NCBI GenBank assembly: GCA_964584225.1
Contig: CAZOZG010000002.1
Span: 5,127-69,126, forward strand
From: an uncultured Candidatus Saccharibacteria bacterium
GTDB lineage: Bacteria; Patescibacteriota; Minisyncoccia; Phycocordibacterales; UBA2100
DNA length: 64,000 bases
Direction of reading: 5' to 3'
In this document: piece after piece, positions 2,510 to 64,000 of the stretch
How the letters are laid out: each line of letters opens with the position of its first letter
How positions within the stretch are numbered: position 1 is the first letter of the stretch
Position numbers and translations under genes: made by a program
The notes under the pieces: generated by a model
Told to the model about the DNA's origin: nothing
Databases searched by the model: none
Seen by the model: the letters and a program-made list of their open reading frames with translations, nothing else

Positions 2510-3946
2510 CTATTTCTCGCCTCGGATTCTTGCCTCGATTATTGAGCGGAGCATCGCCGGGTTTGCCGCACCCTTTGTAGCTTTCATTGCTTGACCAACA
2601 AGAAACTGAAGGGCGGCAACCTTACCCGATCGTAGATCAACGAGCACTTTTTCGTTTTGCTGAAAGACATTGTCTATGACATTTTCTAAAGCCTTTACGT
2701 CCTGCAGTTGAAGCAAACCTTTTTCGTTTGCAACCTTCTCAGGATTCTGGTCTCCTTCAACGCATACTAATAGTATGTCCTTCGCAGAGCGGGAAGAAAG
2801 CTTTCCTTCATCTATCATCCGAGTCAAAACCACAAAATTACGGGGCGATATGCCTATATCGGCTTTATATCCTGAATCTCGATTCTCGGCTTCTCGGATG
2901 ATACTCACTAAATCATTTGCAATGTAGTTTGAAGCTAGTTGAACCAACTTAGTGTTACCCTCAAGGAGCTGTAACACATTTTCCACGAACTTGGCAAGTA
3001 CGGGTTCGCGTACATACAGGTCCGCGTCTTCTTTTTTCACTCCACGCTTTGTGTAGCGATCTCTTCTTTGCCACGGCAACTCGGGCATTGAATTCTTCAA
3101 CGTAAGAAACTCGCCCACTTCCGAAAGTTTCAGGCTTGGCAAATCTGGATCCGGAAAATATCGATAATCGGCGCTCCCCTCTTTCGTACGTTGCGGGAAC
3201 GTCGCCTGTTTACCTTCGTCCCAGCCGCGAGTCTCTTGCATCACTTGTTCTCCTTTTTCCAATGCAGCGATCTGGCGTTTGATTTCGTATTCGACTGCGC
3301 GCTCCATTGCACGAAATGAATTGAGATTTTTTATTTCAACTTTCGTGCCAAGCTGCTCACCTTTGCTGACTGAGACATTCGCTTCTACACGCATTTCACC
3401 TTTTTCCATGTTTGCTTCTGACACATCCAACGTTCGCAGCAGCAATTGCAGCTCGCGCGCAAACGCTCCGGCCTCTTCGGACGAGTATACGACGGGCTCT
3501 GTCACGAGTTCCATCAAAGGCACGCCGGCACGATTGTAATCAACTGTCGTCGTGCCCGTCGCCTCGTCGTGGAGTGAACTGGCCGTATCTTCTTCAAGGT
3601 GAACGCGGGTGATCTGCACACCACGCAGCTCCCCCCCACTCACCAATGGGTACTCATACTGTGAAAGTTGGTAGCCTTTGGGAAGATCGGGATAAAAGTA
3701 GTTTTTGCGGTCGAATTCGGTGTAGTCAACAAGCTTTCCCCCAAGTGCAATCCCTACCCGTAGCACGCTTTTCACCGCTTCCCTGTTGATCACCGGCAAC
3801 GTCCCAGGATGCGCCATGCAGACGGGACAAATATTTACATTCGGTTTCGATTCATCGGGATCATTTTTGGAATCGCAAAACATTTTCGTCTGCGTCTTCA
3901 GTTCTGCATGTATTTCGAGCCCTATCGTGGGTACGTATTCGCTCAT
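2510..3946 (-). CDS. gatB: Asp-tRNA(Asn)/Glu-tRNA(Gln) amidotransferase subunit B.
   Basis: MSEYVPTIGLEIHAELKTQTKMFC...PNVNICPVCMAHPGTLPV is the canonical GatB N-terminus. The start is placed at the internal ATG (3946); the track ORF extends 33 codons further upstream. Stop codon is TAG. Confidence 0.9.
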   Translation of the reverse strand: MSEYVPTIGLEIHAELKTQTKMFCDSKNDPDESKPNVNICPVCMAHPGTLPVINREAVKSVLRVGIALGGKLVDYTEFDRKNYFYPDLPKGYQLSQYEYPLVSGGELRGVQITRVHLEEDTASSLHDEATGTTTVDYNRAGVPLMELVTEPVVYSSEEAGAFARELQLLLRTLDVSEANMEKGEMRVEANVSVSKGEQLGTKVEIKNLNSFRAMERAVEYEIKRQIAALEKGEQVMQETRGWDEGKQATFPQRTKEGSADYRYFPDPDLPSLKLSEVGEFLTLKNSMPELPWQRRDRYTKRGVKKEDADLYVREPVLAKFVENVLQLLEGNTKLVQLASNYIANDLVSIIREAENRDSGYKADIGISPRNFVVLTRMIDEGKLSSRSAKDILLVCVEGDQNPEKVANEKGLLQLQDVKALENVIDNVFQQNEKVLVDLRSGKVAALQFLVGQAMKATKGAANPAMLRSIIEARIRGEK

Positions 3947-19405: not shown

Positions 19406-21262
19406 CTATCGCATCCACGCGTCGTACCACAGCTGGAATGTCATTAGGGTCCACAATTTTTTGCGATGATCGCGCGTGCCGGATTCATGCTCGTGCAACA
19501 TACGCTGAATTGGCTCTGGTTTGAAAAAGCCACTGCGGCGCACCGAGTCGGTGGATAGCAATTGATGCGAGAGATCGCGCAATTCTTTCTGCAACCAGCG
19601 ACCAATTGGCACCCCAAAGCCTTGTTTTTTGCGCCACACATTTTCCAACGGCAATTTTTCACTCATGAGCCGCTTCAAAAGGTACTTGCCAGTAAGCCCG
19701 CGATATTTATATGAGTACGGAAGTGCAGAGACAAATTCCACGAGCGTATGATCGAGAAACGGTGCGCGCACTTCCAAGCCGTGCGCCATGCTCGCACGAT
19801 CGACTTTGACCAAAACCTGATCCATGAGGTAGGTGCGCGCGTATGACCATAAAAGGTCGTGATGAAATTGTTCTTTGTCTGCATGGATCGAAAAGAATTG
19901 ATCAAGGTGCGCATACGGTGACCGGCGTGCGGGAGTAATCAAAAGATCATTCGCCTCGCGATCATTGAACGCGCCGAGCCACTGTTGATGCCGATAGCGC
20001 GGATCGGTATCCGCGCCTTCGATAAATTTTTTGAGGACGAAATCTGCACTAAAATAGCCGTGACGGACAGGTAACGCATTGATCACAGGCTCGATGAGCG
20101 AACTGCGCAGGGCACGCGGAATTGCGCGATACCAGCTCACAAATTGTTCTGCACGAAAGGTCGGATAGCCAGCAAACAGTTCGTCGGCGCCGTCGCCGCC
20201 GAGCGCGACCGAGACGTGCTTTTTAGTGAAGGATGACAAAAGGTACGTCGGCAGCACCGACGCGTCGGCGAGTGGTTCATCGATGTAGCGAAACACTTCC
20301 GGAATGAGCTCGACGCAACGCGCGGAAGAAAATTGCTCTGCCGTATGCTCAACCCCGATTGTTTTTGCAGCGATTTTCGCATATGTAAGTTCGTCGAAAT
20401 CTGCATCGTCGAAACCGATCGAGAATGTCTTCACCGGTGCACGCGAGGTCTTTTTTGCGTAGTACGCGACCGTCGAGCTATCGATACCACCTGAGAGGAA
20501 CACTCCTAAGGGGACGTCGCTCATGAGGCGCTTTTCAACAGCGCGCGAGAGATGCCGATCGAGCATCTCTCGCGCGTGTTCAAATGAGATCGAGTGTGAT
20601 TGTCGCGACAACGACCAGTAAATTTCCTCTTGCGGCTCACTCCCCTTTTTCGAAACGACGTAGCCACCTGGCTGTACCTTGCGCACACCTTTGAAAATCG
20701 AATATGGCGTCGGAACGTATTCGTACGTGAGATACATGCGCACGGCATCCGGATCAATTTCTTTTTTGAATGCGGGGTGCTGCATCAACGATTTCAATTC
20801 GGAGCCGAAAATCAAGGTGTCGTCGAATACTCCCCAGTACAGGGGTTTCTTCCCCATGCGATCGCGCACAAGATACACGGTGTCGCCACGATGATCGTAG
20901 AGCGCGAAGGCGAACATGCCCTCGAGCTTTTCAAACGCTTTCGCCCCGTATCGCTCGAAGAGCGCAAGAATCACCTCGGTGTCGGTGTTGCTCGTGAATA
21001 CGTAGCCTTGAATTTCTTTTTTGAGTTCTTGGAAATTATAGATTTCGCCGTTGAAAATGATGGTCGTGTGGCCGCTCGCGCTCGTCATTGGCTGATGACC
21101 TGCTGCTGATAGGTCGATAATCGAAAGACGCGTGTGCGCAAAACCAATATGACCTGCATACCAGATACCTCGATCGTCCGGCCCGCGGCGACCCAATGCA
21201 TTCGTCATTTTATCGAGCGTCGCCGTGTCGCCCTTCCCGTAAAATCCGCCGATGCCGCACAT
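19406..21262 (-). CDS. asnB: Asparagine synthase (glutamine-hydrolysing) family amidotransferase.
   Basis: MCGIGGFYGKGD N-terminal nucleophile, and the SGGIDSS PP-loop. Confidence 0.85.
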   Translation of the reverse strand: MCGIGGFYGKGDTATLDKMTNALGRRGPDDRGIWYAGHIGFAHTRLSIIDLSAAGHQPMTSASGHTTIIFNGEIYNFQELKKEIQGYVFTSNTDTEVILALFERYGAKAFEKLEGMFAFALYDHRGDTVYLVRDRMGKKPLYWGVFDDTLIFGSELKSLMQHPAFKKEIDPDAVRMYLTYEYVPTPYSIFKGVRKVQPGGYVVSKKGSEPQEEIYWSLSRQSHSISFEHAREMLDRHLSRAVEKRLMSDVPLGVFLSGGIDSSTVAYYAKKTSRAPVKTFSIGFDDADFDELTYAKIAAKTIGVEHTAEQFSSARCVELIPEVFRYIDEPLADASVLPTYLLSSFTKKHVSVALGGDGADELFAGYPTFRAEQFVSWYRAIPRALRSSLIEPVINALPVRHGYFSADFVLKKFIEGADTDPRYRHQQWLGAFNDREANDLLITPARRSPYAHLDQFFSIHADKEQFHHDLLWSYARTYLMDQVLVKVDRASMAHGLEVRAPFLDHTLVEFVSALPYSYKYRGLTGKYLLKRLMSEKLPLENVWRKKQGFGVPIGRWLQKELRDLSHQLLSTDSVRRSGFFKPEPIQRMLHEHESGTRDHRKKLWTLMTFQLWYDAWMR

Positions 21263-39527: not shown

Positions 39528-41300
39528 ATGTGCGGGATTTTCGGCATCAATGAAAAGAATGAACCACTCGTCGACGCAGCGGCTGCGTGCATTCGTCACC
39601 GCGGGCCAGATTCCTACGGCAAATGGATTGGGGAGTCTTTTTCTTTTGGTTTCGACCGACTCGCGATTATCGATCTCGATCAACGCGCCAATCAGCCGAT
39701 GTGGGACGATGCGCGCGAGCTCGCCGTTGTTTTCAACGGGGAAATCTATAATTTCAAAGAGCTGAAGAGTGAACTCGAAAAAGAATTTCAGTTTCGTACG
39801 ACCTCTGATACAGAAGTCTTGCTCTACGGGTATAAAAAATACGGACCAGCATTCGCCGAGCGATTACGTGGCATGTTTGCTTATGCGATCTACGACTCGA
39901 AGAAAAATCGTGTGGTGCTGTTTCGCGATCACGCTGGCATCAAACCCCTCCTCTACTATTTCAAAGACGGCATCTTTCTCTTCGGTTCTGAGATGAAAGC
40001 AGTTATGCGTGCGCTTTCACAAAAACAGATCGCGCCGACGCTCGATCGCGATGCAATTCAAAGTTACTTCGGGCTTGGCTATATTCTTTCTCCGGCGACG
40101 ATGTACAAACACGTTCGCAAAGTGCCTCGTGGCTCGTATCTCGAATTCGATATTGCGAAGAAGCAAATTGTTGCCGTAGAACATTTTAAAAGTCCCGGGG
40201 CGAAGGCGAAAAGTGATGACGAGCTTTTCACGATTATCGAACAAAGCATTCTTGATCACCTGATCGCAGATGTGCCCGTCGGTCTCTTTTTCTCAGGGGG
40301 AACGGATTCATCGCTTATTGCATCGATCTTGCACGCGCACAAGGTGGACCTTGAGACATTCAGTATCGGAGTCGAGGGACGAGACACCGACCGAAAATAC
40401 TTTTCCGAAATAAGCGAAACGCTCGGCATCAAGGCGCACGCGTTCGATTTCACACCCGCGGAATTCAACGCGGTCTACGAACCCGTCATGAACAAAGTGG
40501 ATGAACCATGCGCCGATATTTCGATTTTTCCCACGTACTTTGTCTCTCAAAAAGCCGCGGAACGGGTGAAAGTGGTGCTTTCTGGCGAAGGCGGTGACGA
40601 ACTTTTCTTTGGATACGCGCGGCAGCGCGCGCTCGCGCGCCTCCGCGGCGCGCGCTGCCGCGCTTCCCTCACACTTGTCGAACAACTTTTCTTGCGCACA
40701 CCAACCTTTAAAGGCAAAAACTTCGTTTTCGAGAAGATCTTTACGCTCCTACGACAGCCCGTGAGCGCGTACCTCCTCTTCATGTCACCGTCGCGTGACC
40801 TTACCAATCCTGCTGCGTGGGCTGCTGCAAAAAAATCTCTCGTAGAGCAGGCGAATGAACCACTCTACTTCGACCGCGATCTGTATCTTGAAAATGATTT
40901 ATTGCGTAAGACCGACTTCGCGACATCACTAAACTCAATCGAAGGCCGCGTTCCCCTTCTCGACCCACGTATCATCGCAGCCGCACCGGCGTTTGCCAGT
41001 GAATACAAACCATCGGCACCGTCGAAACCAGTGCTGAAACGGCTTCTCGCTCGTTTTTTGCCGAAAGAATTGGTGTACCGCCCAAAAAGTGGTTTTGGGA
41101 TTCCGCTGCTGCGAATGCTGCCTCATTCAGAGGCTTTGCGACGTGATCTCGATTTGGCAATTGCTTACCTGCAAAAAGAGAGGCTCTTGTATGCAACATT
41201 GCCACGCACACGTGAAGAACTGGTGGCTCGGTATCCGAATCTGTGTTTCGCGATGATCAGTCTTTACCGTGCGCTCACGAACAACGCATCACAAGCCTGA
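39528..41300 (+). CDS. asnB: Asparagine synthase-family amidotransferase, second paralog.
   Basis: MCGIFGINEK, SGGTDSS. Confidence 0.8.
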   Translation: MCGIFGINEKNEPLVDAAAACIRHRGPDSYGKWIGESFSFGFDRLAIIDLDQRANQPMWDDARELAVVFNGEIYNFKELKSELEKEFQFRTTSDTEVLLYGYKKYGPAFAERLRGMFAYAIYDSKKNRVVLFRDHAGIKPLLYYFKDGIFLFGSEMKAVMRALSQKQIAPTLDRDAIQSYFGLGYILSPATMYKHVRKVPRGSYLEFDIAKKQIVAVEHFKSPGAKAKSDDELFTIIEQSILDHLIADVPVGLFFSGGTDSSLIASILHAHKVDLETFSIGVEGRDTDRKYFSEISETLGIKAHAFDFTPAEFNAVYEPVMNKVDEPCADISIFPTYFVSQKAAERVKVVLSGEGGDELFFGYARQRALARLRGARCRASLTLVEQLFLRTPTFKGKNFVFEKIFTLLRQPVSAYLLFMSPSRDLTNPAAWAAAKKSLVEQANEPLYFDRDLYLENDLLRKTDFATSLNSIEGRVPLLDPRIIAAAPAFASEYKPSAPSKPVLKRLLARFLPKELVYRPKSGFGIPLLRMLPHSEALRRDLDLAIAYLQKERLLYATLPRTREELVARYPNLCFAMISLYRALTNNASQA

Positions 41301-53104: not shown

Positions 53105-54934
53105 TTATTCGTGACTTCCGCCGTTGAGGACTTTTTGCAATTCTTCGGGCGAGACTTCGCCATTGCTTTTGCTTTCGGGAGGACGTGGTGCCGGAGGCCG
53201 TGGAGCTTCTGCTGCTGGAGCGCGGACGGGTTGTGGCTGCGGGCGAGGATGCGGCGAGGGATTACTGTGTGTCTTTGCAGACATGCGAGAGCGTAAGACA
53301 TCTGCGGGAGAGCGCTGTCCAGATGCGTTTGACGGATTTTCCTGGGGCGCGGCGGCAGGCCTTGCCGCAGCGATTGCGTCGCGGAGCGCTCCGCGCTCCG
53401 CGGGTGCGGCTTGCGGCTGCGCCTGCGGCGGACGAGGAGCATTTTGAGGTCGCACGTATCGATCTTCTCGGCGCGGGATGAATTCGCGCGGCTCGCGCTG
53501 CATCTGGGGACGTGGCCCACGATCGGATCGGTCATCTCGTGGCGCGCCATCGCGCGGACCGTTCCATCGCCGCTCCCCCATCCCGCGTCGCTCGGCGGGT
53601 GCGCCCGCGGGTCGCGGGGGCGGTGCGAATTCTGCCTGACGTTTATTGACTGATGCTTCAATGTCGGTGCGTTTCCTCCCAAACTCTTCGCGTGAATTTG
53701 AAATCACATCATCGCGATACGAAACAGGCGGCGCCTCGATGGGCGCGATGGTGTCTGCAGAAAATGGTGGTGAGCCTACACCGTCGATCATGAGCGTGAG
53801 ATAGATTTGTCCGATTCCAAGGCCTGCCAGATCCTCGGCCGTAAATGTCGGGTCAAACACGGTTTCCAAAACTTCCGCGTCAAAAGGCCCGACGCGGAAA
53901 CACACGAGCGTCCCGATGTTGCCGAAAACCGCATCTCGCACTTTTTCTTCCATTTGCTCGATGTATTGGTTGGCGAGTGTGAGCGCAAGTTTGTATTTGC
54001 GCGATTCGGAAAGAATGTCGGCGAACGCCTCGTTCATCATCGACTGGAACTCGTCGACGTAAAAATAAAAGCGAGGCAACTTCGCCATCCGGAGAGGCGG
54101 CTCGTCGGCTCGCGAAATCGCCGCGAGATAAATCTTCACGACAAGCATTGATCCTAGAAGCGCGGCATTGGTCTCACCCATGCGCCCTTTTGAAAGGTTC
54201 ACAATGAAAATCTTTTTCTCATCCATCATTTGGCGGAGATCGAAAGTCGACTTCGGTTGCCCGACAATATTACGAATCAACGGGTTCGAGGTGAATTGAC
54301 CGACTTTGTTTTGAATCGCCGGCGTCGCTTCACGCGTATAGGTATCGGTAAAGCTCGCAAATTCTTCCGTCCAGAACGATTTGACTATCGGGTCGGTGAT
54401 GCGCTCAATCACCGCGGCGCGAAATACTTTGTTGGTGAGCATTCTGTTGACGTCGAGCAATGTGGAGCCAGGGTACTCGAGCAGTGCGAGCAAGGTGTTT
54501 TGCAAAATATATTCCATACGTGCACTCCACGCATCGACCCAGATACGCTTCAGTGCGCCCATGAGTCCGGAGACGACGAGATGTCGTTTCTCGTAGCCGA
54601 CGTCTTCCATCACGTTGAAGCCAACCGGATAGTCGGTGTCGAAAGGCGCGAAATAGACGACGTCTTTCAAGCGGTCGTGCGGGACGAAATTGAGGAGTCG
54701 CTCGGCGGTCGCACCGTGCGGATCGATGAAGGCGATACCTTCCCCGTTTTGGATGTCTTGGATCGCCATGTTCTCGAGCATTGTGGATTTACCCATGCCG
54801 GTCTTACCGATGATGTACATGTGCTTCCCTCGGTCGTCGGCGCGAATACCAAACATCTCGCGTTTCCCGCGCATGTGGGTAGCGCCAAAATACGTAATAC
54901 GTTTATCCGGATCGCTTTGGTCATTCCCGGCCAT
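53105..54934 (-). CDS. VirD4/TraD/HerA-like (DUF87-type) P-loop ATPase with an approximately 200-aa Pro/Arg/Ala-rich disordered C-terminal tail.
   Basis: Walker A IIGKTGMGKST; Walker B-like YFYVDEFQ; then low-complexity PPPRPAGAPAERRG...PRPQPQPVRAPAAEAPRPPAPRPP. Confidence 0.5.
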   Translation of the reverse strand: MAGNDQSDPDKRITYFGATHMRGKREMFGIRADDRGKHMYIIGKTGMGKSTMLENMAIQDIQNGEGIAFIDPHGATAERLLNFVPHDRLKDVVYFAPFDTDYPVGFNVMEDVGYEKRHLVVSGLMGALKRIWVDAWSARMEYILQNTLLALLEYPGSTLLDVNRMLTNKVFRAAVIERITDPIVKSFWTEEFASFTDTYTREATPAIQNKVGQFTSNPLIRNIVGQPKSTFDLRQMMDEKKIFIVNLSKGRMGETNAALLGSMLVVKIYLAAISRADEPPLRMAKLPRFYFYVDEFQSMMNEAFADILSESRKYKLALTLANQYIEQMEEKVRDAVFGNIGTLVCFRVGPFDAEVLETVFDPTFTAEDLAGLGIGQIYLTLMIDGVGSPPFSADTIAPIEAPPVSYRDDVISNSREEFGRKRTDIEASVNKRQAEFAPPPRPAGAPAERRGMGERRWNGPRDGAPRDDRSDRGPRPQMQREPREFIPRREDRYVRPQNAPRPPQAQPQAAPAERGALRDAIAAARPAAAPQENPSNASGQRSPADVLRSRMSAKTHSNPSPHPRPQPQPVRAPAAEAPRPPAPRPPESKSNGEVSPEELQKVLNGGSHE

Positions 54935-56388: not shown

Positions 56389-56766
56389 ATGATTGATCAT
56401 GCAGGCGTGCACGTTAGCGATTACGAAAAGTCGAAAGCATATTACACACAAGCACTCGCCCCGCTTGGCTATACGCTCATTGCCGACTACGCAGAGTACA
56501 AAGCTGCGGGTTTTGGTGAAAGCGGCAAGGCAGATTTTTGGATCAGTGGCGATGGCGCCGAACAGGATAATCACGTTGCATTTTCCGCAAAAGATAAAGC
56601 AACGGTCAACGCATACTACAAAGCGGCGATGGCCGCAGCTGGCACAGACAACGGTGCACCCGGCTATCGCAAAGATTACTCGCCCGGCTACTACGCGGCA
56701 TTCGTGAAAGACCTGGATGGTCACAACATTGAGGTCGTCTTCCACGATCCAAACCCGAGCGCCTAG
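56389..56766 (+). CDS. VOC (glyoxalase/bleomycin-resistance) family protein.
   Basis: MIDHAGVHVSDYEKSKAYYTQALAPLGY...HVAFSAKDKATVNAYY...GHNIEVVFHD. The track start of 56341 is an alternative. Confidence 0.55.
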   Translation: MIDHAGVHVSDYEKSKAYYTQALAPLGYTLIADYAEYKAAGFGESGKADFWISGDGAEQDNHVAFSAKDKATVNAYYKAAMAAAGTDNGAPGYRKDYSPGYYAAFVKDLDGHNIEVVFHDPNPSA

Positions 56767-57431
56767 GGTTCAATGATGACGACAAACTCGCCGCGGGCCT
56801 TCTGGCCCGCGGCGAGTTTTTCTTCCAACTCTTTCGGCGCACCAGAAAGTACTTCTTCGTGCATTTTGGTGAGCTCGCGAGCGATTGTGATGCTCGCTTT
56901 TGGTACAAATGAACCAAGCTCCTTCAACAATTTCAAAATTCGGTGTGGCGATTCGTAGAGTACGACGGGGACATCGCTTTTTGCAATTTGTTTGATCGCG
57001 GTTTGCCTTCCCTTTTTGTGCGGTAGAAATCCAATAAACGTAAAAGACTGCGCATCGATACCTGCGATCGACAGTGCAGCAGTGAGCGCGCTTGGGCCTG
57101 GTACTGCGTCGACGATGCCGCCGTGCTCGCGAACAAACGCAACCAAGCGAGAACCGGGGTCCGAAATTCCTGGCGTCCCGGCGTCAGTCACGTAGCAAAT
57201 GTGCTCCCCTCGCTCGAGCCGTTCGAGCACTTCTTTCGCGCCTTTCATCTCCGTCGCCGCATCGAGTCGATGGACCGATTTACGCAAACCGTAGTGGTTT
57301 AAGAGCTTTAGGATTTCACGCGTGTCTTCCGCATAAATTGCCGTGCATTCTTTCAGGTTCCACAGTGCGCGGAAGGTGATGTCGCCCATATTTCCGATGG
57401 GAGTTGCGACGATTGAAAGTTTGCCTTGAGC
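56763..57431 (-). CDS. rsmI: 16S rRNA (cytidine1402-2'-O)-methyltransferase.
   Basis: KLSIVATPIGNMGDITFRALWNLKECTAIYAEDTRE...VTDAGTPGISDPG...LYESPHRILKLL. Confidence 0.8.
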   Translation of the reverse strand, partial: AQGKLSIVATPIGNMGDITFRALWNLKECTAIYAEDTREILKLLNHYGLRKSVHRLDAATEMKGAKEVLERLERGEHICYVTDAGTPGISDPGSRLVAFVREHGGIVDAVPGPSALTAALSIAGIDAQSFTFIGFLPHKKGRQTAIKQIAKSDVPVVLYESPHRILKLLKELGSFVPKASITIARELTKMHEEVLSGAPKELEEKLAAGQKARGEFVVIIEP

Positions 57432-57450
57432 CATGCGAAAGACGCTACCA

Positions 57451-58092
57451 TCATTCGCTCGCATTGAGAAGCTGCCACAGCTCATCGGTATCAGTCGCGA
57501 CTCGCACGCCAGTATTACTGAGTGCGTTCATCGAATTGAATCCCCACGATACCGCAATCATATCGATGCCCGCGGCGCGGCACGCCTCGACGTCACGTAT
57601 TTCATCTCCGATGTATACAGTGGACGATGGGTCGAGGTGTTCCTGTCGAATTGTTTTGCGTAGCGCGTGGGATTTACCAAAAATTGACGCTCCTGCTCGC
57701 ACAAAATCTGGGCGAATGGTAGCGCTTCTGAGTATCGCCGTGACGGTACGATCCGAATTTGACGAGACGATTCCGACGCGCACGCGCGCACCTTCGAGGC
57801 GTTCGATCAGGTCAGGGATACCCTCTACAACCTCCACATGAGCGACCCGTTTTTCGAATTCTTCCCGACCTCTGCGCTGCATCTGATAGACCTTCCACAT
57901 ATTCCAGCGCGCGGTGCCAAGTCGGCGCGTGAGCACATCGCGCGCATTTTCCTCTCGCAACGCCGTGATTTCTTCTGATCGAATCGGCGCGAAACTAAAT
58001 TCCTTTGCAAGCACGTTGATCGTCTCCAGCGTGGCGAGTTCGCTTTTTGCGATCGTGCCGTCAAAATCAAAAATGACCGTTTTGTATCGCAT
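57451..58092 (-). CDS. HAD-superfamily hydrolase.
   Basis: MRYKTVIFDFDGTIAKSE (motif I), and VYIGDEIRDVEA (motif IV). Confidence 0.65.
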   Translation of the reverse strand: MRYKTVIFDFDGTIAKSELATLETINVLAKEFSFAPIRSEEITALREENARDVLTRRLGTARWNMWKVYQMQRRGREEFEKRVAHVEVVEGIPDLIERLEGARVRVGIVSSNSDRTVTAILRSATIRPDFVRAGASIFGKSHALRKTIRQEHLDPSSTVYIGDEIRDVEACRAAGIDMIAVSWGFNSMNALSNTGVRVATDTDELWQLLNASE

Positions 58093-60282: not shown

Positions 60283-61605
60283 TTATACTGCCGACACAAT
60301 TTTCAAAAATTGATCGTTGCGATCAAATTCGTTCTTAAAATATTTCCCGAAAGAAGCAAACGCGGGGCTGTAAAGTACGGTTTCGCCTGGCTCGGCAACC
60401 TGGAACGCACGCACGACCGTCGCCTTCAATCCCTCTTCCTCATACACCTGGACGGCCGGTTGTAGGGCAAATATATCTTCTCGAATCCGTTCCGAGCCGC
60501 GCTCTTTGAAGAGAACAACCTTCGAACACCACTTCGGGATCTCTTGTATCAATTCCGACATATCGAGTCCCTTATCATCGCCGCCCATGATCAGCACAAC
60601 GCCCTTCTTATGCTGATCACCGACTGCACGAAGGGCCGCGATCGTCGCTGTGGGTGTCGTCGAATTATTATCGTTATAGATTTTCACGCCGTTCACGTCC
60701 CGCAAAAATTGCAATCGCCCCTCGACACCTTCGAACGATTCAAGTCCGTCTTTCACTTCTTCGTCGGAAAGTCCGAGTGCCATGAGCACAGCTGCAGCGA
60801 GAGCCGCATTTTCACGATTGTGTTCTCCGACGACCCGCAATTTCCAATCATGTGGGAGAGGCACGGGCGTCATGGCCCCGACTGAGGGTTTCGTTGCAGC
60901 GACGCGCTCCGCGATCGAGGTACCAACGATTAATTTATCGTCTTTCGTTTGAAACTTGAAAATGTTTGTTTTGTCTGCAAAATACGTTTCCATATCAGGA
61001 TAATAATTGAGATGATCGGCAGAAAGATTCGTCACGACGGCGATGTGCGGACTGATTTTGAGTTCTCCAAAACCTTGGAGCTGCCATGAGTCGAGTTCCA
61101 AGACTGCAACGTCGCCTTTTTTCACACTGTGCAGCATGGCGAGCGTTGATTTACCGCGAATATTGCCACCGAGCAGCGCGTGCTTCCCAGCACGCACGAG
61201 AGTTCGATAAATCATGTGTGTCACGGTGGACTTGGCGCGTGTACCGGTAACACCGACGATTGTTGCGCCCATTTCCGACGCATATTTTGCAAAAAGCGCG
61301 GTTGACATCATGACAGGCACGCCCGCTTTCTGGGCAGCGGCGATTTCTGGCGAGTTCAGCGGCACCCCTGCCGCCTTCAATACCATGTCTGCATCTGTAA
61401 AATCAGCCATGTCGTGACCACCAAGATGAAATGCAACGTTCTTAAAATGCTCGAGTTTTTTAACGGACACGGCGAGTTCATCCGATGTCTTTTTGTCCGT
61501 TACGACGATTTCAGCCCCACAATTGGCTAAGAATTCGACATCACCTACCCCGCGACCGAGGAGTCCAAGACCCATTACCGTGATCTTTTTGCCCTCAAAT
61601 GGCAT
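60283..61605 (-). CDS. murD: UDP-N-acetylmuramoylalanine--D-glutamate ligase.
   Basis: KKITVMGLGLLGRG...GVTGTRAKSTVTHMIY. Confidence 0.85.
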   Translation of the reverse strand: MPFEGKKITVMGLGLLGRGVGDVEFLANCGAEIVVTDKKTSDELAVSVKKLEHFKNVAFHLGGHDMADFTDADMVLKAAGVPLNSPEIAAAQKAGVPVMMSTALFAKYASEMGATIVGVTGTRAKSTVTHMIYRTLVRAGKHALLGGNIRGKSTLAMLHSVKKGDVAVLELDSWQLQGFGELKISPHIAVVTNLSADHLNYYPDMETYFADKTNIFKFQTKDDKLIVGTSIAERVAATKPSVGAMTPVPLPHDWKLRVVGEHNRENAALAAAVLMALGLSDEEVKDGLESFEGVEGRLQFLRDVNGVKIYNDNNSTTPTATIAALRAVGDQHKKGVVLIMGGDDKGLDMSELIQEIPKWCSKVVLFKERGSERIREDIFALQPAVQVYEEEGLKATVVRAFQVAEPGETVLYSPAFASFGKYFKNEFDRNDQFLKIVSAV

Positions 61606-61669
61606 GCAAACATTCGACATCGTGCTGCAACTATATCACTTGCGCTTCAAAGTTTCTCATTCTCGAATC

Positions 61670-61699
61670 TGTTATCCACTTGTCGAAAATCAGTGCACA
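61670..61699 (+). promoter_or_regulatory. Sigma70-like promoter upstream of the DUF4430 gene.
   Basis: TTGTCG (61670..61675), 18-nt spacer, TACAAT (61694..61699). The predicted transcription start near 61706 leaves an approximately 180-nt leader. Confidence 0.4.
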
Positions 61700-61705
61700 A
61701 GAGTA

Positions 61706-61885
61706 CAATGCGCGTCCCAGTTGATTGTGGAAGTCGGGTTTCATCCCCGCACTGTGCCGCAACGGTAATGTCCTTCGCTGTAGCGAGGGAACGAGTCCGG
61801 TCTTCGATCAACTGTACATCCCGAGCAGGACAGCACCGCATACGGTGTTCGATCGAAAGATCTCTGCTTCGGGCAGGGATTTTTT
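61706..61885 (+). ncRNA. Candidate cobalamin riboswitch / structured 5' leader ending in a T-tract immediately before the ATG.
   Basis: GGAAGTCGGGTTTCATCC...CCCCGCACTGTG...GGTAATG (61729..61770) resembles the GGGAA..GGTG.AA.TCC...CCCGCCACTGTAA core of cobalamin riboswitches. A CCCGAGCAG / CTGCTTCGGG stem and TTTTTT (61880..61885) precede the start codon. Downstream genes are DUF4430 (B12-binding-type) proteins. Confidence 0.3.
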
Positions 61886-62383
61886 ATGCGAAAACACATC
61901 ACAATCATCATCGCACTTATCGCGGCCGCGATCAGCGTCGTCACGTTGTCGACACTACAAGAGCGCACGAGCACAGCAGTCGCCCCATCGGCGCAACAAA
62001 ACGTACAGCAATCTGAACCGGCGCCTGCATCGCAGGCGCCGGCTGCGAGCCATTCTTCGAACCCGACTCCCGCCGCATCTTCCAATGCGCCGGCACCCAA
62101 TGTCACTCTCCTTGTCGGCAGCTCTTCGTACCACACATTTATCCCAACGGGATCGACGGTCTTTGATCTCATGCGGACACTCGCCTCAACCACGGACTTC
62201 CGTTTTACCTATCGCACGTATCAATCGCTCGGCGCATTTATCGAATCGATCGATGGCATGGCAAACGCGCACGATTGGTACTGGTTTCTCTACATCAATG
62301 GCAAATCGTCGCAGACCGGAGCAACGCAAACAGCACTCAACCCTGGCGACACGGTCGAGTGGCGATATGAGAAAAATTATTAA
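61886..62383 (+). CDS. Secreted DUF4430-like protein (intrinsic-factor/transcobalamin beta-domain-like).
   Basis: Signal/TM anchor ITIIIALIAAAISVV, then an S/P/A-rich linker, then GSTVFDLMRTL...AFIESIDGMANAHDWYWFLYINGKSSQTGATQTALNPGDTVEWRYE. Confidence 0.4.
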   Translation: MRKHITIIIALIAAAISVVTLSTLQERTSTAVAPSAQQNVQQSEPAPASQAPAASHSSNPTPAASSNAPAPNVTLLVGSSSYHTFIPTGSTVFDLMRTLASTTDFRFTYRTYQSLGAFIESIDGMANAHDWYWFLYINGKSSQTGATQTALNPGDTVEWRYEKNY

Positions 62384-62392
62384 TTAGTAGTA

Positions 62393-64000
62393 ATGCGCAT
62401 GACGTATAAAAACACGTTTGCAAGTTTGGTTCTCACTTTTAGTATTGCGATCACACCGACCTTCGCATTTGCGGACGATGCGAGCTCGACGCCGCCACTC
62501 GATGCAAGTTCGACTCCCCCGACCGCCACTTCAACAGAGCCTACGGCGACATCATCGCCACTGTCGATCACCGCTCCAGGAGATCAAACATTTTCGACGA
62601 CGACATTTCCTGCGTTTCCGTTACTGGATTTTGCGACAGCGTCCGACACTCCGGATTCGAATCCAACTGTCAGCTTTTCTCCGACATCATTTCCGCATGG
62701 CACGACGACGGTGACATGGACGGCGACCGATGCCGCGAACAACGTCGCAACAACCACCTCGAACGTCGGCGTCTTTCTCGGCGTCGAAGGTTCTATCGAT
62801 GTGCCGCCGAATTGCATCGTGACCGATAGCGACGGAGTCGCACATCAATACCCTGAAGCGAGTTCGACAAGCACGTACCTTGGAATCTGTGCGCTTGAAG
62901 CAGCAAAAGAGAGTGGCCTCATTTCTTCAGTTGGACTCTCGAATCAGTTTCCGAGTCTCGGCTTGTTTGTGACGAGTGTCGATGGAATCGCTGCAGACCC
63001 AAATAGTCAATTCTGGGCACTCTTTCAAAATGATGGTTTCGCGAGCGCAGGACTGAGCTCGCTTCCGGTACATGCGACTGACACGATCGCTTTGAAACTC
63101 GAGGACTTCAATGGCAACAATCTGGGTGGCAAGGTCATCCTGCATATCAATAGTCTGGTGAGCACGAGCTCGAATGCAACAAGCACGAGTGCTACGAGCA
63201 CACCGGAAAATCCGCCGCCCCCGCCCGGAGGCGGCGGTGGCATTTCGCACCTATTCCTCAACATCCCAAACGCGTTTGCGTATCTTACGAGTAAACAAAA
63301 CGCCAACGGTTCCTTCGGCGCACCAGGGGACGACCCGATCAAGACAGACTGGGCCGCGATCGCGTGTGCGGTCCCGAATGCACCTGCGCAGCCGTGCAAT
63401 AAGTTGCGCGCGTACGAACTCGCGGCTACGCCAACGCTCTCCGTCGTTACCGACGCGGAGCGACATGCAATGGCGCTTGAAGCATTGAATATCGATCCCT
63501 ACACAGGTGCTTCCGTCAATTACATTGCAACAATTGTGAATGCCTTCGACGGCACGAGTATTCCCGGACCGGTACAAAATGATATTTTCGCACTCTTCCC
63601 ACTCCTGCACGCCGGCTATGCACCGACCGACGACATAATTCAAAAAATCGGCGCTTCGGTACTCGCTGCACAAAAGCCTGACGGTTCGTGGGGCGATCCG
63701 GACACGACGGCTGCGGCAATTCAGGGGCTCGGCATGCTCTTCACAGGAGACCCGGCGAAAGATGGCGCGCTCGGCGCAGCACTCGGCATGGCCGAAGGAA
63801 AGCTACTCGCGACCGAAGGCTCCGACGCGTCATGGGACGAAAACGTCGACTCGACGAGTTGGATACAAACGATGATGAACTCGGTGCAGGAGGGCGATCC
63901 AGCTCATGCAATTCCCTTCACGAGCTCCGCCGGCCTCGTCCCCAACGATGCGATCGCGCGTACCCAAGCGACAGACGGCGGTGTGCAACCAAATAGCGTG
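62393..64000 (+). CDS. Partial large secreted surface protein (continues past the right edge): signal peptide, T/S/P-rich region, HYR-like segment, DUF4430-like domain, G/P linker, and prenyltransferase/squalene-cyclase-like alpha/alpha-toroid repeats.
   Basis: Manual translation from ATG 62393 stays open to 64000: MRMTYKNTFASLVLTFSIAITPTFAFADDASSTPP...TWTATDAANNVATTTSNV...GICALEAAKESGLISSVGLSNQFPSLGLFVTSVDGIAADPNSQFWALFQNDGF...PPPPPGGGGG...KQNANGSFGAPGD...QKPDGSWGDPDTT. Not in the ORF track because it has no stop in the window. Confidence 0.5.
   Translation, partial: MRMTYKNTFASLVLTFSIAITPTFAFADDASSTPPLDASSTPPTATSTEPTATSSPLSITAPGDQTFSTTTFPAFPLLDFATASDTPDSNPTVSFSPTSFPHGTTTVTWTATDAANNVATTTSNVGVFLGVEGSIDVPPNCIVTDSDGVAHQYPEASSTSTYLGICALEAAKESGLISSVGLSNQFPSLGLFVTSVDGIAADPNSQFWALFQNDGFASAGLSSLPVHATDTIALKLEDFNGNNLGGKVILHINSLVSTSSNATSTSATSTPENPPPPPGGGGGISHLFLNIPNAFAYLTSKQNANGSFGAPGDDPIKTDWAAIACAVPNAPAQPCNKLRAYELAATPTLSVVTDAERHAMALEALNIDPYTGASVNYIATIVNAFDGTSIPGPVQNDIFALFPLLHAGYAPTDDIIQKIGASVLAAQKPDGSWGDPDTTAAAIQGLGMLFTGDPAKDGALGAALGMAEGKLLATEGSDASWDENVDSTSWIQTMMNSVQEGDPAHAIPFTSSAGLVPNDAIARTQATDGGVQPNSV

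Follow-up and report, generated by a model that had tools for sequence, protein, structure and literature searches.

The 64,000-nucleotide (nt) stretch of contig CAZOZG010000002.1 (assembly GCA_964584225.1) of an uncultured Candidatus Saccharibacteria bacterium, the whole of which is here called the window, carries a gap of 265 nt between a divergent murD gene (60283-61620, minus strand) and an ATG at 61886, and this gap contains all the elements quoted in an earlier note on the same DNA. Positions 61716 to 61885 are interpreted, with a probability of about 0.85 for the explanation as a whole, as the 5' leader of an operon of two genes and as a corrinoid (vitamin B12) riboswitch repressing these genes, whose products are predicted B12 binders. 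The leader is a structurally typical cobalamin riboswitch with a lineage-specific variant of the proposed kissing loop. The evidence comprises the match in sequence and structure to a known family, covariation in related leaders, an arrangement that recurs throughout the family and the fold of the first protein.

Aptamer and related leaders

In a search of the local region in expectation-value (E-value) mode, positions 61718 to 61814 matched the Rfam model RF01482 (adenosylcobalamin, AdoCbl, riboswitch) with 44.5 bits, the gathering score being 50. This corresponds to an E-value of 4e-7 for 400 nt and of 5e-5 for the same sequence searched within 52 kilobases (kb). The elements of the aptamer are listed below, as placed by the Rfam alignment (bp, base pairs).

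61718 to 61814, plus strand: cobalamin riboswitch aptamer with a four-way junction (RF01482, 44.5 bits, and covariation)
61718 to 61727 with 61805 to 61814, plus strand: outer helix P1/P3, continuous over 10 bp
3' of the 5' strand of the outer helix and before P4: J3/4, UGGAA
61733 to 61738 with 61746 to 61750, plus strand: P4, loop 61739 to 61745
61753 to 61755 with 61759 to 61761, plus strand: P5 (UGU-GCC-GCA)
61763 to 61765 with 61797 to 61799, plus strand: P6 (CGG with CCG)
61771 to 61790, plus strand: P6 extension, an internal loop followed by an 8-bp hairpin
61794 to 61804, plus strand: B12-box-like AGUCCGGUCUU
61755 to 61759, plus strand: L5 loop UGCCG, aptamer half of the proposed kissing loop

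The core GGAAGTCGGGTTTCATCCCCGCACTGTGCCGCAACGGTAA (GGAAG...ACUGUGCCGCAACGGUAA) lies at 61729-61768, and its pattern was found in none of 100 shuffles of the window. The core nucleotides (GGAAG in J3/4, the B12 box AGUCxGG and J6/3) are present in comparison with the model consensus, and are invariant or nearly so in 47 aligned leaders. The earlier note had described a core resembling that of cobalamin riboswitches, which the significant RF01482 match and the covarying structure of orthologous leaders bear out. The letters that it quoted are present, but their register was partly wrong, as CCCCGCACTGTG had been aligned to the consensus CCCGCCACTGT. The reading of CCCCGCACTGTG as the CCCGCCACUGU motif was rejected; the covariance model makes it the 3' strand of P4 plus J4/5, with CCCCGC as part of that strand, and gives UGUGCCGCAACGGU (61753-61766) as the counterpart of the consensus GGuCcCgCCACUGU.

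Related leaders were collected in two ways. Homologs of the 165-amino-acid (aa) protein with the DUF4430 domain encoded by the first gene (38-50% identity) were recruited from metagenome-assembled genomes of Patescibacteria, including Kaiserbacteria, Nomurabacteria and Paceibacterota, and a scan of metagenomes with the core pattern gave at least 120 stretches. In total, at least 132 distinct homologous leaders were obtained from Patescibacteria genomes and metagenomes; all counts of leaders refer to those among the matches listed. A custom model, R1, scored the present leader at 105 bits, detected the same leader type in about 26 of the 42 genome loci recruited by protein alone, and found no second copy within the window. 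When 20 short loci were scanned with Rfam, nine reached the gathering score of RF01482 at 52-62 bits (best 61.8), eight more scored 33-49 bits on this model and three gave only weak matches to RF00174; RF01482 was the best Rfam model for the present leader and for 17 of the 20 relatives. The covariance-model check proposed in the earlier note therefore had a mixed outcome: the leader itself stays under the gathering score, but the nine relatives that pass place the leader family inside a known Rfam family, of which the copy at 61718-61814 is a near miss. At the Rfam gathering score, this copy and roughly half of the relatives escape annotation, and the lineage-tuned R1 recovers them.

Covariation was assessed on a MAFFT alignment (A2) of 47 leaders, with the structure taken from the Rfam alignment. 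Paired cells amounted to 93.9%, versus 40-62% for slid partners; 17 of the 25 pairs change on both sides, and none of 500 shuffles reached any of these measures. Double-sided changes affect all ten pairs of the outer helix and four of the five pairs of P4. RNAalifold, run blind, recovered the outer helix (P3) and P4 as well as the base of the P6 extension, where each pair shows 14-17 double changes, and a hairpin of at least 4 bp folds at the P6 extension in 114 of 122 leaders. The conserved structure that the earlier note had expected in orthologous leaders was thus found, with strong covariation. A chance resemblance, in which the leader is not a ligand-sensing RNA at all, is exceedingly improbable: it would agree with the score below the Rfam cut-off and with a fold z-score of only -2.6, but not with the E-value of 5e-5 in the 52-kb search, the conservation of at least 120 leaders, in which four helices show compensatory changes, in diverse Patescibacteria, or the consistent association with B12-binder genes, and the comparative data already contradict it.

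Proposed kissing loop and expression platform

The features 3' of the aptamer are the following.

61819 to 61830, plus strand: P13 hairpin UCC-CGAGCA-GGA, with loop L13 at 61822 to 61827
61834 to 61847, plus strand: variable hairpin CACCG-CAUA-CGGUG, a spacer separating P13 from the terminator (fold prediction)
61820 to 61828 with 61864 to 61873, plus strand: antiterminator, CCCGAGCAG with CUGCUUCGGG, -17.0 kcal/mol
61860 to 61880, plus strand: hairpin of the intrinsic terminator AUCUCUGC-UUCGG-GCAGGGAU (minimum-free-energy fold), with the U run at 61880 to 61885

The P13 hairpin, absent from the account given in the earlier note, recurs as a small hairpin with the loop CGAGCA, located 4-8 nt past the outer helix, in 122 of 125 leaders. 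Its stem covaries, being UCC/GGA in 97 cases, UUC/GAA in six, UCU/AGA in five and GCC/GGC in one, in addition to some G-U variants. The L13 loop CGAGCA is complementary to the L5 loop UGCCG as CG(A)GCA, with five potential pairs and one bulged A. The canonical L5/L13 pair is UCCCG with CGGGA (PMC10327014), and one relative, L046, combines the canonical L5 UCCCG with L13 CGGGGA, so that the second base of L5 and the fourth base of L13 change together between subfamilies. Within the subfamily both loops are invariant, and covariation between them therefore shows only between subfamilies. Another partner for L5, in which its GCC would kiss a GGC in the loop or 3' arm of the terminator, was rejected; that motif is absent from L028 and L033, and the CGAGCA hairpin is near universal.

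The segment CCCGAGCAG (61820-61828) is complementary to CTGCTTCGGG (61864-61873) over nine pairs with one bulged U. The earlier note had described this stem as the terminator. Both strands are present and complementary, but the stem stops six bases (CAGGGA) short of the T run and is therefore not the hairpin of the terminator. It coincides exactly with the duplex that joins the P13 region to the terminator arm, which identifies it as an antiterminator. It is mutually exclusive with P13 and with the terminator. The potential to form such a duplex is a property of the family: between the P13 region and the 5' arm plus loop of the terminator, the mean energy in 91 leaders was -11.0 kcal/mol, versus -6.0 kcal/mol for shuffles (Wilcoxon p = 3.5e-15), and -8 kcal/mol or lower was reached in 79% of the real leaders versus 2% of the per-leader shuffle means. 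A hairpin of different sequence is found in relatives at the position of the spacer hairpin.

The hairpin at 61860-61880, with a G+C-rich stem of 8 bp and a loop of 5 nt followed by U6, has the form of an intrinsic (Rho-independent) terminator, and a G+C-rich hairpin plus a T run follows P13 in 95 of 124 leaders. The T6 run (61880-61885) directly adjoins the start codon at 61886, as had been claimed. In the window, the antiterminator state has an energy of -17.0 kcal/mol, P13 with the 8-bp terminator -18.2 kcal/mol and the minimum, with an extended terminator, -29.7 kcal/mol; as the 3' strand of the antiterminator is transcribed before the 3' arm of the terminator, these energies agree with a kinetic switch. 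Also included in the terminator's 3' arm is AGGGA (61875-61879), 6 nt 5' of the ATG, a likely Shine-Dalgarno sequence that the hairpin would cover; both levels of control may therefore operate.

Control might instead be mainly translational, with the hairpin hiding AGGGA and the U run standing next to the ATG incidentally. This is somewhat unlikely. It agrees with the position of AGGGA in the 3' arm, 6 nt from the start codon, and with four relatives (L056, L146, L156 and L157) in which the ATG lies 5-8 nt after P13, no terminator is present and the arm GGAA/GGAG serves as ribosome-binding site in a purely translational design; in such relatives the 3' arm of P13, GGA(A/G), can double as a ribosome-binding site. 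The hairpin of the present leader is, on the other hand, a textbook intrinsic terminator, the terminators of most relatives stop 10-25 nt short of the start codon and are unable to mask a ribosome-binding site, and the two modes are not exclusive.

Under the preferred interpretation, a repressing riboswitch that acts through termination, the sequence of events would be as follows. With cobalamin bound, L5 UGCCG (61755-61759) would pair with L13 CGAGCA (61822-61827) through five pairs and a bulged A, and this kissing loop would stabilise the weak three-pair stem of P13 (61819-61830). With P13 and L13 locked, CCCGAGCAG (61820-61828) would be barred from CUGCUUCGGG (61864-61873), the terminator (61860-61880 and U6) would form, and transcription would end just before the ATG at 61886; in transcripts that read through, the AGGGA ribosome-binding site would be buried in the same hairpin. 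Without cobalamin, the antiterminator would form first during transcription and the operon would be expressed. We infer this OFF direction by analogy; the same logic of kissing loop and P13 with antiterminator and terminator was proven by compensatory mutagenesis in the corrinoid riboswitch of metE of Priestia megaterium (PMC10327014). Activating (ON) switches also exist, such as that of A. halodurans cobT, whose P13 itself acts as antiterminator (PMC10327014). An ON switch is very improbable here: P13 (61819-61830) is clear of the terminator (61860-61880) and overlaps the 5' strand of the antiterminator, so that its stabilisation favours termination, and genes for uptake or scavenging are normally repressed by B12.

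The leader is preceded by a candidate promoter.

61680 to 61709, plus strand: sigma-70-type promoter, TTGTCG at 61680 to 61685, an 18-nt spacer and TACAAT at 61704 to 61709

The motif named in the earlier note is present at its place, although it is at chance level on its own: it scored 9/12 in a consensus scan, not above shuffles, and the scan gave two promoter sites in 1.6 kb where 1.3 were expected. The relatives show conservation of its position: of 99 related leaders, 35 have a TTGnnn-N16-19-TAnnnT motif whose end lies 7-9 nt 5' of the outer helix, a sharp peak with respect to other offsets, and in the present copy the gap is 8 nt. Because of this conservation, transcription probably starts near 61716-61717, which gives a leader of about 170 nt.

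Several results weigh against the interpretation as a cobalamin riboswitch with this switching mechanism. The whole-window Rfam scan at gathering thresholds gave no match, and with a score below gathering this leader is missed by default Rfam annotation. The stem of P13 has only three pairs. A simple consensus scan for promoters and terminators did not call the terminator, which was established by folding and family comparison; in our reading the miss is explained by a stem able to extend into the T run. P5 and the three base pairs of P6 never vary in the main data set. The invariance of L5, the P5 stem and the P6 base arises because the metagenome search pattern fixed them, and as a consequence the pairing of P5 and of the P6 base and the kissing loop rest on the Rfam consensus, a few variants and analogy. 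Such variants are L020 (UAU/GUA) and L032 (AGU/GCU), recruited by protein, which keep the P5 pairing through double changes. RNAalifold proposed other pairs among the invariant columns, and no B12 transporter (btuB, btuFCD) or B12-dependent enzyme was found among the 53 open reading frames (ORFs) scanned in the 64-kb window.

The pairs proposed by RNAalifold, UGGA/UCCG and ACUGU/ACGGU, were not adopted; they lie in invariant columns, and L020 breaks one of them and keeps the P5 of Rfam.

Downstream genes and genomic surroundings

The operon comprises two genes on the plus strand.

61886 to 62383, plus strand: gene 1, 165 aa, with a hydrophobic N-terminal anchor, a low-complexity linker and DUF4430 (transcobalamin-like beta-grasp)
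62393 to 64000, plus strand: gene 2, at least 536 aa and running past the end of the window, with an N-terminal anchor, a weak HYR-like domain, DUF4430 and an alpha/alpha-toroid-like region

Both products carry DUF4430 (Pfam PF14478) above its gathering score of 23.8 bits, as the earlier note had proposed: gene 1 with 55.1 bits (E 1e-14) and gene 2 with 26.7 bits at aa 186-237, the toroid-like region being C-terminal to the domain. Sequence searches of the PDB gave only weak transcobalamin matches (E 0.02-0.1), which made a comparison of folds necessary. The AlphaFold model of gene 1 has blocks spanning residues 71-165 with a mean predicted local distance difference test score of about 89-98. 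In Foldseek, the top 15 PDB matches were all transcobalamin or haptocorrin (E about 2e-6), with intrinsic factor further down; against 5np4, the isolated beta domain of human transcobalamin with cyanocobalamin, the template modelling score was 0.78 and the root-mean-square deviation 1.9 Å. Gene 1 thus models as a transcobalamin beta domain, and the proposal that DUF4430 has the fold of the B12-binding beta domain was upheld. For gene 2, the full-length ortholog L003:5546-7744 matched SQHop_cyclase_C with 27.1 bits (gathering score 26.1) and Cobalamin_bind with 24.3 bits, just under the gathering score of 25; its best PDB sequence match was the alpha domain of transcobalamin-1 (E 0.045).

Both gene products are predicted from sequence to be membrane-anchored or secreted and transcobalamin-like. 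Cells of the Patescibacteria type are presumably unable to make B12, and the most likely role of the two proteins would be to capture external B12 for such a cell. The link drawn in the earlier note between DUF4430 and bacterial surface B12 scavengers finds no support in the BtuH paper (PMC8941943), which mentions neither DUF4430 nor transcobalamin. A fitting precedent is instead the study of Burroughs et al. 2007 (PMC1796856), in which secreted bacterial proteins combining SLBB and toroid domains were predicted to bind B12.

The functional link between riboswitch and DUF4430 extends to the relatives, as 97 of 124 leaders directly precede a DUF4430 ORF, located within 173 nt on their 3' side, and at least three more precede divergent DUF4430 proteins. 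In the P0007 lineage (L006-L008; 5001-5486 in L006), the DUF4430 gene pair occurs without the leader, the first gene starting 22 nt after a TrwB-like gene; not every ortholog is therefore riboswitch-controlled. The TrwB-like gene of L006 and L008 lies within a run of genes on the same strand that includes an AAA+/ClpB-like gene, and a TrwB_AAD_bind protein is also encoded in the window, at 53105-54934.

Other genes follow some of the leaders. Of the leaders L072, L089 and L138, one stands before the gene for CbtA, a cobalt transporter subunit (Pfam E 5e-48), and the other two precede secreted proteins of about 410-450 aa that are repeat-rich by eye; L089 was scanned and gave no Pfam match. An aptamer with L5 UGCCG and L13 CGAGCA precedes proteins of 400-580 aa in L057, L069, L113, L120, L122, L150 and L167. 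All seven have in common a motif resembling GGC(A/P)G and, at the C-terminus, a CxxC...CxxC zinc ribbon, and look like an uncharacterised family under B12 control; a Pfam scan of those from L113, L120 and L167 gave no family beyond a weak zinc-ribbon match. In L114, L148 and L155, the proteins encoded 3' of the riboswitch are very acidic, measure 550-725 aa and have the conserved block WQLE(H/Y)KGDSGY.FDG near the N-terminus, and that of L114, the one scanned, had no match in Pfam.

The 53 ORFs scanned in the window are mostly glycosyltransferase and polysaccharide genes, in addition to SecA, GatB, MurC, MurD and an ATPase resembling PstB. Within a cluster spanning about 40 kb (10800-53100) are genes for glycosyltransferases, sugar-nucleotide dehydratases and epimerases, C-methyltransferases, NeuB, two asparagine-synthase paralogs (19406-21262 and 39528-41300), an O-antigen-ligase-like protein and a flippase; surface glycans take a large share of this small genome. 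A protein of 240 aa (56763-57485, minus strand) matches PF00590, "Tetrapyrrole (Corrin/Porphyrin) Methylases", with an E-value of 1e-29, and size and context make an RsmI-type rRNA methyltransferase a likelier identity for it than a corrin biosynthesis enzyme.

Riboswitch class and comparison with known systems

Class Cbl-I is defined by a loop-stem-loop, P2, that lies between P1 and P3, together with a large extension of P6 by P7-P11 (PMC7367189). The present leader has neither: a continuous outer helix of 10 bp is directly followed by UGGAAG, and P6 bears a single 8-bp hairpin. It also lacks the bulged J1/3 and loop-capped P6 of Cbl-IIa, as the outer helix has no bulge and P6 has an internal loop and a hairpin. 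A paired or mismatched J1/3 segment and a short P6 hairpin extension, the features that define Cbl-IIb (PMC7367189), are found, and the aptamer at 61718-61814 is by architecture Cbl-IIb-like; the AdoCbl selectivity described for that class may extend to it.

That the aptamer senses another corrinoid (methylcobalamin, hydroxocobalamin or an incomplete corrinoid), with the AdoCbl label of Rfam being misleading, is a lesser but real possibility. Selectivity is set by peripheral elements and is not reliably predictable from secondary structure (PMC7367189), the L5/L13 pair is non-canonical, and in six relatives (L167, L169, L024, L025, L040 and L045) P6 is capped by a bare loop in a Cbl-IIa-like manner. 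On the side of AdoCbl stand the best Rfam model, RF01482, and the Cbl-IIb architecture of this copy, which is described as AdoCbl-binding (PMC7367189).

Some relatives differ around the core. L003, L012 and L013 have one or two inserted hairpins 5' of it, and many relatives (L003:4740-4812, L012, L013, L019, L021, L030 and others) carry an insertion of 35-55 nt between the outer helix and GGAAG. This segment folds into one or two hairpins, of which AUCCGC-AGUUAGAAAAA-GCGGAU is an example, and an alternative partner for its 3' arm could be the AUCCGU that follows the B12 box; the insertion may represent a P2-like arm or take part in alternative pairing. In L036:3355-3629 (Parcubacteria), the aptamer is present with the P13 motif more than 100 nt further downstream than usual and with a second weak model match (15 bits) at 3523-3629, explained perhaps by an insertion or by a degenerate copy in tandem.

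The known working of cobalamin riboswitches is unchanged by this leader. Its significance is that genome-reduced Patescibacteria would keep a B12 sensor wired to surface transcobalamin-like proteins, and this wiring is indirect evidence for a dependence on scavenged corrinoids. The literature searched contained nothing specific on cobalamin riboswitches in Patescibacteria or the candidate phyla radiation. A wider claim, which we consider unlikely, is that the UGCCG/CG(A)GCA variant marks a distinct subclass of cobalamin riboswitches centred on Patescibacteria, with a regulon consisting almost only of the secreted binder pair and without a recognisable transporter. If this were true, it would point to an undescribed uptake of corrinoids, from the surroundings or from hosts, by ultra-small and probably B12-auxotrophic episymbionts, possibly with a corrinoid selectivity of its own, and the uncharacterised families behind the same aptamer, mainly the 400-580-aa zinc-ribbon proteins, would represent new B12-related functions.

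Among known riboswitches, the closest are those of RF01482/Cbl-IIb (clan CL00101), with which the leader shares the four-way junction P3-P6, the GGAAG of J3/4, the P4 loop, the B12 box AGUC(C/A)GG, the short P6 hairpin extension and a 3' P13 hairpin. It differs in its score of 44.5 bits, below the gathering score of 50, in having L5 UGCCG instead of UCCCG and L13 CGAGCA instead of the CGAGGCA-type loop of the model, and in an alignment that covers model positions 17-104, the outer 5' segment and the long P13 stem of the model being absent.

With the metE riboswitch of P. megaterium (PMC10327014), the present leader would share an L5-L13 kissing loop that stabilises a weak P13 and the same regulatory logic. 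The metE kissing loop has five contiguous pairs (UCCCG/CGGGA) and its P13 an internal loop, whereas the leader described here has a predicted bulged A and a P13 of 3 bp, and its antiterminator also uses loop bases of L13. With env8HyCbl (Cbl-IIa; PDB 4FRN) it has in common a small aptamer without a P2 arm, a kissing loop with a bulge, proposed in the present leader, and a 3' arm of P13 that can carry the ribosome-binding site (PMC10327014, PMC7367189). env8HyCbl has a bulged J1/3, a bare loop on P6 and translational control, in contrast to the continuous outer helix, P6 hairpin extension and terminator of the present leader.

With regard to the proteins, gene 1 models as the B12-binding beta domain of transcobalamin, intrinsic factor and haptocorrin, and gene 2 shares with the bacterial transcobalamin-like SLBB proteins (PMC1796856) a beta domain together with an alpha/alpha toroid located C-terminally. 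In contrast to these known proteins, the predicted binders of Patescibacteria have an N-terminal anchor and low-complexity linkers, and their domains are split over two genes; the order of the domains is the reverse of that in the animal proteins.

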